Assembly (NCBI GenBank): GCA_009695005.1
Contig: SIBU01000004.1
Span: 1-50,130, forward strand
DNA length: 50,130 bases
Direction of reading: 5' to 3'
DNA from: Candidatus Tayloriibacteriota bacterium
Lineage (GTDB): Bacteria; Patescibacteriota; Minisyncoccia; Phycocordibacterales; SIBU01
Position numbers and translations under genes: made by a program. The notes under the pieces were generated by a model, which saw nothing but the letters and a program-made list of their open reading frames with translations, did not search any database and had not been told where the DNA came from. Of the stretch, positions 896-3,244 are shown piece by piece (within the stretch, counting starts at the first letter, position 1; every line of letters starts with the position of its first letter).

Positions 896-967
896 ATGAA
901 AAAAATATTAAAAATAAATAGTAAATCTCATCACAATATTCCCTCTGCCGAGAAAGGGTTGTATTGA
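896..967 (+). CDS. Putative attenuator leader peptide MKKILKINSKSHHNIPSAEKGLY (23 aa)
   Basis: ATG 896 to TGA 967, tandem His codons CAT CAC at 929-934, ends 16 nt before a strong terminator. Too short for the ORF track. Confidence 0.5.
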   Translation: MKKILKINSKSHHNIPSAEKGLY

Positions 968-983
968 ATGTTTTTTTCAATTT

Positions 984-1015
984 AACCCCTTCCCGGTAGC
1001 CGGGAAGGGGTTTTT
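984..1015 (+). terminator. Intrinsic terminator (attenuator-type) upstream of the racemase-like gene
   Basis: Perfect 13-bp stem AACCCCTTCCCGG/CCGGGAAGGGGTT with a TAG loop, followed by a T run. Confidence 0.85.
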
Positions 1016-1122: not shown

Positions 1123-1890
1123 ATGCAAAATAGTAAAAAATACTTGGTAACAGCAGCTGGCGGTAACGGTACGATAGTCGAACTCTTGAAAGAGGGTTTG
1201 AGCCGTGCAGAATACGCCAAGCAAGGAAAAATTCTAGGCAGGGATTTTGAACCACAAGAGGCGGAACAAGCAGGCTTTCTTATCCCTATAGAAAACCGGT
1301 TTGAGATGGCCGGTGGGGAGTTTTGTGGTAATGCCGCGCGGTCAACTGCCGTCTTACTCTCTATAATTAAAGGATTGACCGAGGTGGAGTTCACTGTGTC
1401 AGGATTTATCGGCACAGTTAAAGCCACTGTGATAAAAATAGGTGGCTCACGATACACCGCGAGGTGTACGTTTGGTGGTTTGCCGGTTATTAGAAAAGAC
1501 GTTTGTCTTAAAAGTGGCCAGGAGGTGTCGGTAGTCGATCTCGGAGGAATCGTACATGTTGTGTTTGAGGCTCCCTTTCCTGTTGATAAAACTTTTTATC
1601 AGAATGCGCACCTTGCTATGATGCGTGAACTTGAACTAGAAAACCGTGAAGCGGTCGGTGTAGTTTGGTTTAAACGCCAGGACAGGTCTGTATTCCTATA
1701 CCCAGTGGTTTGGGTGAAGGAGGTTGACACCTTTTTCTTCGAGCAATCTTGTGGTTCAGGAACAATCGCTGTTGCTCTTGTAACAGGGGCTAAATCAGTT
1801 GTTCAGCCCACTGGAAAAACAATCGAGGTTGAAATCATGAAAAATGGAGTTGTGTTGGAAAGTGAGATGGAGGTTACATATGAAAGTTAA
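1123..1890 (+). CDS. DapF-fold racemase/epimerase, closest in motif pattern to CntK-type histidine racemases
   Basis: AAGGNGT, EQAGF, FEMAGGEFCGNAAR, LYPVVWVKEVDTFFFEQSCGSGT and VVQPTG; both catalytic Cys present (CGN, SCGSG). Confidence 0.8.
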   Translation: MQNSKKYLVTAAGGNGTIVELLKEGLSRAEYAKQGKILGRDFEPQEAEQAGFLIPIENRFEMAGGEFCGNAARSTAVLLSIIKGLTEVEFTVSGFIGTVKATVIKIGGSRYTARCTFGGLPVIRKDVCLKSGQEVSVVDLGGIVHVVFEAPFPVDKTFYQNAHLAMMRELELENREAVGVVWFKRQDRSVFLYPVVWVKEVDTFFFEQSCGSGTIAVALVTGAKSVVQPTGKTIEVEIMKNGVVLESEMEVTYES

Positions 1891-2482
1891 AAAAGTTTGT
1901 GCCGATCTTCCAAGTCTTCGTTCAGGGTTTGTGTCTGTTTACAAAGAAGCTTTTGGTGGTCCGCCATACTATGAAAAGTATGAGGACACCGAGGTTGTAA
2001 ACGACATATGGTTGCCCCACGTAAAAAAAGGACTTGTGGTGCTGGCTTCTGAGGGTGAAAAAACGATAGGGTTTTCTTGCTCTATGCCTTTTTCGGAATC
2101 TCCGGTAGATGTACAAACGTACCTGCTGGGGAAAAAGGAAAATAACTCACTTTCACTTGATGTGCGAGCGATCTGGTACAACTCTGAGCTTGGTGTTGAA
2201 ACACCATATCGAAAAAAAGGCGTAGGGTATGCGCTTATGAGAGTTCGTTTGGCGGAGATCGTGGCGTCGGGCGGGGAATATTATGTAGCTCGTACGGCGT
2301 CAGTAGGTTCAAACTCTCTTCATCTCTATGAGAGGATCGGATCGGTGAAATTGCCAGGCAGTCATAATGTTTCCATTTCCGACCAAGTGATCGTGAATAA
2401 ATCACAGAGCACTGAACGAATCTATCTCTACGGTAGCTGTAAAGAAGCTATAAGAGAAATTGATGTCATCCTAACGGAATAA
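1880..2482 (+). CDS. GNAT family N-acetyltransferase
   Basis: Acetyl-CoA loop YRKKGVGYAL and C-terminal SLHLYERIG. ATG 1880 follows GGAGG and overlaps the upstream gene end. Confidence 0.8.
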   Translation: MKVKKVCADLPSLRSGFVSVYKEAFGGPPYYEKYEDTEVVNDIWLPHVKKGLVVLASEGEKTIGFSCSMPFSESPVDVQTYLLGKKENNSLSLDVRAIWYNSELGVETPYRKKGVGYALMRVRLAEIVASGGEYYVARTASVGSNSLHLYERIGSVKLPGSHNVSISDQVIVNKSQSTERIYLYGSCKEAIREIDVILTE

Positions 2483-2510
2483 TTTTTCGTCAAGACAGAG
2501 TAGATAATTG

Positions 2511-2538
2511 GGACCGTCTTAATTGGCGGTCCTTTTTT
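2511..2538 (+). terminator. Intrinsic terminator between convergent operons
   Basis: Stem GGACCGTC/GGCGGTCC (one G-U) followed by TTTTTT. Confidence 0.65.
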
Positions 2539-3244
2539 ATATTTTAAAATCTAGATGGGAATAGAGGGAACATTTTTTGTCGTAAAAGCATGCCCATTCT
2601 TTATCCCCGTACGAAAAGTGCCACCACTCTCCGTAAAATGGAGCAAATCCTTCTTTCGTGAGGGCGTCATGGAGTATAAGTCGGTTTTTTGTTTGAATCG
2701 AAGAAACCCCTTTGTCAAAAGTTTTTATTTTTTCGGGTTCTGTAAAGTCGGCAATGCGTGTTCCCATATCTAAAGCCTCTCGTTTTTTATCGACGATTGT
2801 AATATCTACAGCACCGCCCGTAGGATGGCCAGCAACGGAAGGTACAGCGCAAAAGTTGTGTGTGAGCGAGTCAAGTTCTTGAGATGAAAAGTGAGGATGA
2901 AGTTCTGAAAGTTTTGTCCGCTGGGCATCGAAATATTTTTTTTGAATTTCCGGGTACCGATATCCGTATACTACTCGAAGACAAAGTCCCATTTGTTTAA
3001 GCTCGTTGTTTGCGGCTGCAAGCTTCCTTGCAACGGCATCTCGGACAAAAATTTTATCGCCTGTATACGGTAACATGTCCTTTTTTTCGTATTCGGCAAT
3101 AATCGTATCGTCATATGTATTGACAAGAGTCATCGATTCTCCATTTTCCGATGATGGCGTTTCTCGTAGCTCCTCGTAAGTGATTATTCTTTCTTTTTTT
3201 GAATTCATGTCTATGGTTAGCTTGATTTTATCATGATCATTCAT
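2537..3244 (-). CDS. D-Ala-D-Ala dipeptidase (VanX/DdpX, peptidase M15 family)
   Basis: YGYR, HPTGGAVDIT, MGT and EWWHFSYGD zinc-peptidase motifs. Start overlaps the permease stop (ATGAATGA). Confidence 0.85.
   Translation of the reverse strand: MNDHDKIKLTIDMNSKKERIITYEELRETPSSENGESMTLVNTYDDTIIAEYEKKDMLPYTGDKIFVRDAVARKLAAANNELKQMGLCLRVVYGYRYPEIQKKYFDAQRTKLSELHPHFSSQELDSLTHNFCAVPSVAGHPTGGAVDITIVDKKREALDMGTRIADFTEPEKIKTFDKGVSSIQTKNRLILHDALTKEGFAPFYGEWWHFSYGDKEWACFYDKKCSLYSHLDFKI

Follow-up and report, generated by a model that had tools for sequence, protein, structure and literature searches.

The question raised by this locus is what a short open reading frame (ORF) with two adjacent histidine codons, followed by a hairpin and a run of T and lying between a gene for a HisR-like repressor and a gene for a histidine-racemase-like enzyme, is doing in a bacterium of the candidate phyla radiation (CPR). 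The comparative evidence set out below argues, with a probability that we put at about 0.78, for positions 896–1020 being a ribosome-mediated (leader-peptide) transcription attenuator, which would read the supply of charged tRNA-His; the histidine-sensing attenuation proposed by an earlier, sequence-only reading of the locus is supported by an ORF, His codons and competing helices that are found family-wide. The window, that is, the whole stretch of DNA that was analysed, has a length of 50,130 nucleotides; the host genome of the contig (0.79 Mb in 24 contigs, 89% complete), of a size typical of CPR/Patescibacteria, is referred to as G000.

Leader, hairpins and ribosome geometry

The leader ORF, recognised from the sequence and from the list of open reading frames, occupies positions 896–967 of the forward strand (ATG at 896–898, TGA at 965–967) and would encode, in 23 codons, the peptide MKKILKINSKSHHNIPSAEKGLY; its regulatory His codons, CAT CAC, read from the sequence and identified as such by family comparison, lie at 929–934. 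Four segments follow on the same strand: segment 1 (935–946), which pairs with 951–965 to give the 1:2 hairpin; segment 2 (948–967), the 5' arm of the antiterminator, which contains GAAAGGGTT (952–960) and the stop codon (965–967); segment 3 (977–996), the 3' arm of the antiterminator, of which 984–996 doubles as the 5' arm of the terminator; and segment 4 (1000–1020), composed of the 3' arm of the terminator (1000–1012) and the T-tract TTTTTGTTTG, as delimited by sequence, terminator scan and folding. The main elements of the sequence-only reading, namely the 23-aa ORF with tandem His codons, the pairing of 952–960 with 984–992 and a 13-bp terminator with a U tail some 110 nt before the next gene, are all present where that reading had put them. 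Indeed, GAAAGGGTT is complementary to AACCCCTTC (984–992) at 8 of 9 positions, and the terminator scan returns a perfect 13-bp stem at 984–1012, with 9 G-C pairs and the loop TAG, followed by TTTGTTTGTC, so placed that 110 nt separate the end of the stem from the start of the regulated gene (ATG 1123). The predicted fold of the leader region is much more stable than that of shuffled sequence: z is −5.0, and none of 200 shuffled versions equals it. No Shine-Dalgarno sequence was found before the leader ATG at 896; several real genes of this region are likewise without one. A terminator-like hairpin is also seen on the minus strand at 1065–1089 (10 pairs, then TTTTTCTTACA), past the attenuator and ahead of the racemase-like gene, where no minus-strand gene obviously needs it.

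According to the proposed mechanism, transcripts from the HisR-controlled promoter behind operator 3 (see below), and probably also those reading through from hisR, would carry the 23-codon leader. When His-tRNA is plentiful, the ribosome would reach the stop at 965–967 and mask segment 2; segment 3 would then pair with segment 4, the 13-bp terminator would form and transcription would end at about 1015–1020. When His-tRNA is scarce, the ribosome would stall at 929–934 and cover segment 1, leaving segment 2 free to pair with 977–996 as these nucleotides are made and thereby to sequester the 5' arm of the terminator; with the terminator blocked, RNA polymerase would continue into the histidine-racemase-like and GNAT genes. 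The HisR-type repressor and the attenuator would together provide a two-level histidine control, like that exerted by TrpR and trpL in E. coli. Translation of the leader, stalling of the ribosome and kinetic competition between the folds are steps that we infer.

The positions of the codons and segments are compatible with these steps. The footprint of a bacterial ribosome extends about 11 nt 3' of the first base of the A site. The distance from the start of the second His codon (932) to that of segment 2 (948) is 16 nt in G000, and 17 nt in the family. With this footprint, the geometry put forward by the sequence-only reading, in which a stall frees segment 2 and arrival at the stop masks it, holds: a ribosome with the second His codon in its A site reaches about 943, disrupts segment 1 and frees 948 onward, while a ribosome at the stop (965–967) reaches about 976 and hides all of segment 2.

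The energetics of the G000 copy are less straightforward. The antiterminator exceeds the segment first proposed, since on folding 948–967 pairs with 977–996 in an 18-bp interrupted hairpin of −19.2 kcal/mol, which includes CCG (948–950) with CGG (994–996) and ATTGAA (962–967) with TTCAAT (977–982); because of these extra pairs it covers the entire 5' arm of the terminator, and it appears to have been lengthened along with the terminator, leaving that arm no free toehold. The terminator hairpin (984–1012) is nevertheless the more stable of the two, at −24.8 kcal/mol. In a folding comparison of the kind suggested along with the original proposal, the equilibrium fold with segment 2 unmasked still keeps the terminator (−30.1 versus −23.8). 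Since the terminator beats the antiterminator at equilibrium, any read-through must be kinetic and co-transcriptional. In addition, the 1:2 hairpin of G000 is weak (−6.4 kcal/mol, against a family mean of −16) and contains, when aligned to the covariance model of the family, 6 non-canonical pairs out of 16. The weak 1:2 helix and the excess of terminator over antiterminator, together with the missing Shine-Dalgarno sequence, the presence of just two His codons and the existence of racemase orthologues without a leader, are the points that stand against the attenuator reading.

Several of these features would also suit an evolutionary leftover, that is, an element whose SLOG and PRTase targets have been lost, whose hairpin is merely the terminator of hisR and behind which the racemase cassette is transcribed from a promoter of its own. 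A degraded 1:2 helix, a terminator stronger than the family norm, the 110-nt gap ahead of the racemase-like gene and the occurrence of the racemase-GNAT-VanX cassette elsewhere without the leader would all be expected from such a history, which we nonetheless judge improbable: the ORF, the His codons and the position of the stop are intact, operator 3 has been kept ahead of the leader, a promoter scan flagged nothing between 1016 and 1122, and an antiterminator that grew with the terminator (948–950/994–996) argues for continued selection.

A family of histidine-codon leaders in the CPR

The element belongs to a family of 25 loci, made up of 19 loci retrieved with a sequence pattern that had been derived from relatives (in Wolfe-, Staskawicz-, Taylor-, Doudna- and Berkelbacteria, in Paceibacterota and in the RAAC4 OD1 genome), the locus of genome G003, four divergent members (L042, L043, L044 and L048) found in a 400-genome sample of the phylum by the covariance model R1, and G000 itself; a fused variant, in genome G009, was kept outside the frame test described below. 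R1 was built from 20 sequences excluding G000. Run against the 50-kb window, it matches positions 926–1015 of the forward strand over its full length (1–99) with 29.1 bits and E = 3.8e-5, the sole match below E = 0.05; the G000 copy is considered a divergent member because this score is well below the 55–69 bits of the core members. Weak R1 matches at L045, L046, L049, L050 and L052 look like false positives; another weak match, L047, encodes H-N-Q-H-N-H but has no start codon. Among relatives of G000, the element is present in all those with a strong hisR-like gene (6–7 genomes), and in G001, G003, G004, G006 and G033 it consists, near hisR, of a short ATG-initiated ORF encoding HH or HHH and, behind this, a hairpin and a T-tract. 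Leader ORF, HH codons and antiterminator, whose conservation at homologous loci the sequence-only reading had named as the check on its proposal, are thus all three kept, in 24 further CPR loci.

Rfam searches of the G000 region and of related loci returned nothing above threshold, the best scores being those of rli38 (30.9 bits versus 49) and of the PyrR site (27 versus 54). The His_leader family RF00514 gave no match at E ≤ 10 over 250–1300 and none at gathering score in six related loci, the T-box model of Rfam matched neither the G000 region nor related loci, and a full-text literature search for attenuation together with Patescibacteria or CPR retrieved no description of the family. Comparison supports placing the element, as a new and divergent member, in a CPR family that has not been published and whose mechanism would otherwise be a textbook one.

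The short ORFs with clustered His codons are predicted to be translated. In 25 of the 25 loci an ATG precedes the His codons in their own frame and no stop comes between, an arrangement that neither of the other two frames shows in any locus (0/25 and 0/25). The leader invariably ends near segment 2: its stop codon is found at −6 to +21 nt relative to the core of that segment and, in three members, ahead of segment 2. Leaders carry two or three His codons, two in the case of G000. The middle one (17 CAT, 3 CAC, 1 CGC) varies almost solely at its third position and is outside the 1:2 helix save for its last base, with a second His codon on at least one side in nearly every member; the third His codon of the family sits in the 1:2 helix, so that part of its conservation is structural. 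In L043, L044, L048 and G009 the helices are wholly different in sequence, and HH, HHxH or HHH is retained. The suggestion that lysine might be sensed instead, made earlier on account of the Lys codons of the leader, finds no backing in the family: these codons fall within the A-rich 5' portion of the ORF, with neither number nor position conserved.

Downstream of the His codons the encoded peptide behaves differently. It reads WKEIGCV in some lineages and MKRDWV in G003 and G006, and consists of unrelated residues in G000 (AEKGLY), L044 and L048; in particular, the same conserved nucleotides are read in different frames, as TGG AAA GAG ATT GGT (WKEIG) in G001 and as AAA AGA GAT TGG (KRDW) in G003, and the entropy by codon position is flat (0.53, 0.52 and 0.61 bits), with no third-position periodicity. 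Since the frame differs between lineages and periodicity is absent, it is the act of translation, and not the peptide, that has been selected. These observations bear directly on the idea of an arrest peptide of the TnaC or SpeFL kind, in which the nascent chain (consensus HHHNQLFLEEIGCG) would stall the ribosome on sensing a small molecule, be it free histidine or some other. Such a peptide would account for the similar C-terminal sequence of most members and for a few synonymous changes, three from GGT to GGC at Gly and one from TGT to TGC at Cys; it is hard to reconcile with the frame change in G003 and G006, with the unrelated residues of G000, L044 and L048, with the flat entropy, with a stop placed before segment 2 in three members and with the fact that the His codons are the sole feature common to all members, and we hold it to be very unlikely.

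The relation of the leader to the gene before it is also informative. Measured from the stop codon of the upstream gene (SLOG or hisR), the leader ATG is found at −7 to +14 nt in 14 of 20 members, a proximity that is the usual signature of translational coupling and would indicate it here; at L022:6835–6932 (minus strand; genome G009) and at L048:1459–1545 the hisR frame itself continues through HHH or HHNH into segment 2, so that the repressor gene would itself serve as leader peptide. Such fusions are difficult to accommodate if the ORF encoded a functional small protein or peptide precursor, provided with its own terminator and devoid of any regulatory role. A conserved small ORF beside enzymes of modifying type (the epimerase-fold protein and the GNAT) and an ABC exporter might recall such a precursor; its sequence, though, is not conserved except for HH, and conserved, mutually exclusive helices overlap its 3' end, which makes this the least credible of the explanations considered.

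The structural side of the family was assessed on a 21-sequence alignment (A1) with 500 shuffles. The "off" fold, composed of a 16-bp 1:2 hairpin and a 9-bp 3:4 terminator, is 90.8% paired and has 7 pairs in which both partners have changed; the 2:3 antiterminator fold is 92.0% paired, columns 46/116 and 47/115 exchanging GC for AU and columns 63/99 accommodating several pair types. For either fold, the observed percentage of paired cells and the covariation score are reached by none of the 500 shuffles, and the number of pairs changed on both sides by 4 (1:2 plus 3:4) and 41 (2:3) of them; when the partner columns are slid, pairing falls to 39–57%. The 1:2, 2:3 and 3:4 helices are mutually exclusive in the way that characterises ribosome-mediated attenuators, 1:2 being weak in G000. 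The mean energies of the family (−16, −20 and −10.4 kcal/mol for 1:2, 2:3 and 3:4, respectively) represent the classical balance, in which 2:3 wins unless segment 1 or the ribosome holds segment 2.

Competing helices alone could also be flipped by an RNA-binding protein or a small ligand, in the manner of a riboswitch or of PyrR, the ORF being translated incidentally where it abuts the upstream gene. The sequences of segment 2 and of the terminator are unusually conserved across distant CPR lineages, more conserved boxes are found beyond the terminator, and weak sub-threshold Rfam matches include the PyrR site; all this would be in keeping with such a switch. If translation were irrelevant, however, the result of the frame test (25/25 versus 0/50) and the constant placing of the stop at segment 2 would go unexplained, and the members L043, L044, L048 and G009, which have altered their helix sequences entirely, would have had no reason to keep their His codons; nor does any Rfam family reach threshold. 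We consider a switch operated by a protein or a ligand unlikely, and the attenuator remains our preferred explanation of the family.

As to the boxes beyond the terminator, a fifth conserved segment, TTCTGGGAAGG, is present in most family loci (e.g. L024, L026 and L031) right after the T-tract, and is complementary to the 5' arm and loop of the terminator; about 10 nt past it lies a box, GTTCTTTAACAA, of which G000 retains GTTCTTT (1047–1053). Segment and box may shape the read-through transcript or mask the ribosome-binding site downstream.

Repressor, operators and regulated genes

Upstream of the leader, positions 469–780 of the forward strand encode a 103-aa hisR-like repressor of the TrpR / YerC-YecD family (Pfam PF01371, E = 7e-10; NCBIfam TIGR02531, YerC/YecD, 48.3 bits, above the cut-off of 42.2). 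An exact-site scan for the palindrome CTTTACnnnnGTAAAG locates it at 387, 438 and 831, the sole three occurrences in the 0.79-Mb genome. Operator 1 (CTTTACTTAAGTAAAG; 387–402) lies upstream of the −35 element of the hisR promoter, and operator 2 (438–453) overlaps the −10/start region of the same promoter (TTGACA 412–417, TACACT 434–439); operator 3 (core 831–846) is contained, as sequence and site scan agree, in a perfect palindrome with 12-bp arms at 824–853. This last palindrome was also considered as a terminator, and rejected since no T-run follows it. All three putative sites match the HisR core TTTAnnnnnnTAAA, which would place the locus in a HisR (YerC/YecD) regulon; for HisR, a histidine repressor of the TrpR family, the published operator consensus is cacTTTAnnnnnnTAAAgtg (PMC9413887). 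The sequence-only reading had described attenuation as layered on the repressor, and a regulator that passes the YerC/YecD model, with operators that fit the published consensus, bears this out. A second, distant TrpR-like paralogue is encoded on another contig of G000 (C20:21651–21872; L015; 32% identity, open frame of 161 aa) and occurs also in G001; no CTTTACnnnnGTAAAG operator is associated with the copy on C20.

The interval between operator 3 and the leader retains what is probably the trace of a deletion. A candidate −10 box, TATAAA, is read from the sequence at 869–874 of the forward strand, 7 nt upstream of an ATG at 882 which opens a five-codon mini-ORF (MKFEL, then stop; 882–899) whose TGA overlaps the leader ATG (ATGA, 896–899). 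In genome G001 the same operator site precedes the SLOG gene, with TATAAA at the homologous position, 4 nt before the SLOG start, and the SLOG start codon aligns with the ATG at 882; the mini-ORF is thus probably the remnant of the start of a deleted SLOG gene. The alignment of the deletion junction between G000 and G001 is ambiguous, as both flanks hold ...AAATG..ATGAAA. A promoter consensus scan did not flag the box at 869–874; possibly, a short or leaderless transcript starts near it.

The genes behind the leader differ among lineages. In relatives the order is hisR, a SLOG cluster-4/TIGR00725 gene, the leader and a PRTase-like gene, and other genes behind the leader are those for a GNAT, an AstE/AspA-type deacylase, a PfkB kinase, DUF6282 and proteins of no assigned function. 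The commonest PRTase-like target has no sequence match in the PDB, and its AlphaFold model (pLDDT 86) matches generic type I PRTases alone (OPRT, APRT), with TM scores of 0.3–0.45. In one Berkelbacteria contig (L037:2775–3755), the gene directly behind the PRTase-like gene of the leader is, we presume from its PRGTKDILP motif, histidyl-tRNA-synthetase-like.

G000 has neither the SLOG nor the PRTase gene, and its leader precedes two genes of the forward strand: one for a 255-aa histidine-racemase-like enzyme of DapF fold (1123–1890), characterised by NCBIfam and PDB searches, and, overlapping its end, one assigned by domain search to a GNAT acetyltransferase (1877–2482), which has just a short N-terminal motif in common with the leader-associated GNATs of L032 and L034. 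The first has no Pfam match; its best NCBIfam models are histidine racemase NF052224 (E = 3e-18) and CntK (E = 1e-12), and its best PDB match is histidine racemase 9cr6 (E = 1e-10), ahead of diaminopimelate epimerase, DapF (5e-7), with the GGEFCGNA active-site motif aligned. Both NCBIfam scores are far below the equivalog cut-offs, which is why the enzyme is called "histidine-racemase-like". A gene for a VanX-like dipeptidase converges on the pair.

This cassette of racemase-like, GNAT and convergent VanX-like genes (1123–3244) is kept in about 28 of 38 loci (L053–L090), mostly from Saccharibacteria, including oral TM7; racemase homologues without the GNAT and VanX partners occur in Clostridium argentinense, Cardiobacterium and Microbacterium. 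The racemase-like gene was found in none of 60 relatives of G000. Conversely, none of the 38 fetched loci of racemase orthologues has an upstream match to model R1, so that the leader family tracks hisR and not the racemase; at four of them (L060, L078, L085 and L090) the cassette adjoins a HisR-like gene, but without this leader. Judged from these loci, the pairing of the leader with a racemase-like target appears unique to G000.

One of the four holds the sole look-alike of the leader among the 38 loci. At L060:2490–2960, a perfect HisR consensus operator (CACTTTACTTTACTAAAGTG) and hisR are followed by hairpins like segments 2, 3 and 4 and then by the racemase orthologue; a single His codon precedes a TGA stop, and the arrangement is apparently a decayed leader.

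Histidine supply and comparison with known systems

Histidinol dehydrogenase was found in none of 11 element-bearing genomes, the same search being positive in 14 of 14 control genomes, and no HisA/HisF was found in G000; from the absence of histidinol dehydrogenase, the element-bearing genomes are probably those of histidine auxotrophs. If so, the switch would turn on the acquisition of histidine and not its synthesis; in G000, we would guess, its output is the conversion of D-His to usable L-His. A contig of G033 (C24:43887–44576) holds one strong match to the HisA/HisF family (229 bits) in a genome without histidinol dehydrogenase, that is, an orphan TIM barrel of the His-pathway type.

A broader interpretation, which we advance tentatively and at somewhat less than even odds, is that a regulon for histidine starvation exists across the CPR, marked by HisR operators together with the His-codon attenuator, and that its cargo would be an undescribed route to obtain or spare histidine: a SLOG/LOG-like protein along with type I PRTase-like proteins that are lineage-specific and, in some lineages, a GNAT, an AstE/AspA-type deacylase, a PfkB kinase and DUF6282 as well, all this having been swapped for the racemase-GNAT cassette in G000. 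Were it correct, the attenuator would also be direct evidence of transcription-translation coupling in CPR bacteria, and several widespread genes of unknown function (SLOG cluster-4, PRTase-like and, here, histidine-racemase-like) would acquire the label "induced by histidine shortage". Whatever its cargo, the element would exemplify amino-acid-sensing attenuation in the candidate phyla radiation, whose organisms cannot yet be grown alone; it would imply a two-level regulation of histidine acquisition in these apparent auxotrophs and, being compact (about 120 nt), could be tested in a laboratory host. Its unusual traits are a histidine-racemase-like target in an apparent auxotroph and, across the family, an intra-operon leader coupled or fused to the upstream gene.

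Among known systems, the hisL attenuator of the enterobacterial his operon (RF00514) is alike in having a short ORF with adjacent His codons, alternative hairpins and read-through when His-tRNA is scarce. The CPR element differs from it in carrying two or three His codons where hisL has seven, in showing no sequence or structure match to RF00514, in controlling no his biosynthetic genes, in residing in hosts apparently unable to make histidine, and in being combined with a repressor.

The trp system of E. coli, in which the TrpR repressor with its palindromic operators is layered on trpL, a leader with two regulatory codons, three competing helices and a stop beside segment 2, offers a parallel. 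The CPR locus likewise combines a TrpR-family repressor and palindromic operators with a leader that has two regulatory codons, competing helices and a stop next to segment 2; here, however, histidine takes the place of tryptophan and a repressor of the HisR/YerC type that of TrpR, and most leaders of the family lie inside an operon, translationally coupled or even fused to the upstream gene.

Candidate His-leader attenuators with 3–5 His codons and terminator/antiterminator hairpins have been described by comparative genomics in Firmicutes, namely in the Bacillus cereus group, Peptostreptococcaceae and Erysipelotrichales (Ashniev et al. 2022, PMC9413887); they precede operons for his biosynthesis or transport, in lineages without HisR (PMC9413887). 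The CPR element, by contrast, is found in another phylum and before other genes, and there a single operon would come under both HisR and the attenuator. The likeness to HisR (YerC) regulons is that the regulator passes the YerC/YecD model, that the operators fit cacTTTAnnnnnnTAAAgtg and that hisR would be autoregulated. The HisR regulons of that study contain his, hisXYZ and yuiF genes, with no racemase, SLOG or PRTase gene mentioned, and its text contains no occurrence of Patescibacteria or of candidate phyla radiation (PMC9413887).

A different arrangement is seen in two Saccharibacteria (L085:2190–2290 and L090:2225–2320). Here the HisR-like proteins encoded beside the VanX-racemase genes end in NNHHDHIPPARD and ESHHAHLSPARD, respectively, each followed by the stop codon and then by a terminator; the last codons of the ORF, GCCAGCTCG, repeat the 5' arm of this terminator and pair with its 3' arm in the minimum free energy fold, an arrangement that may represent a different His-sensing design.
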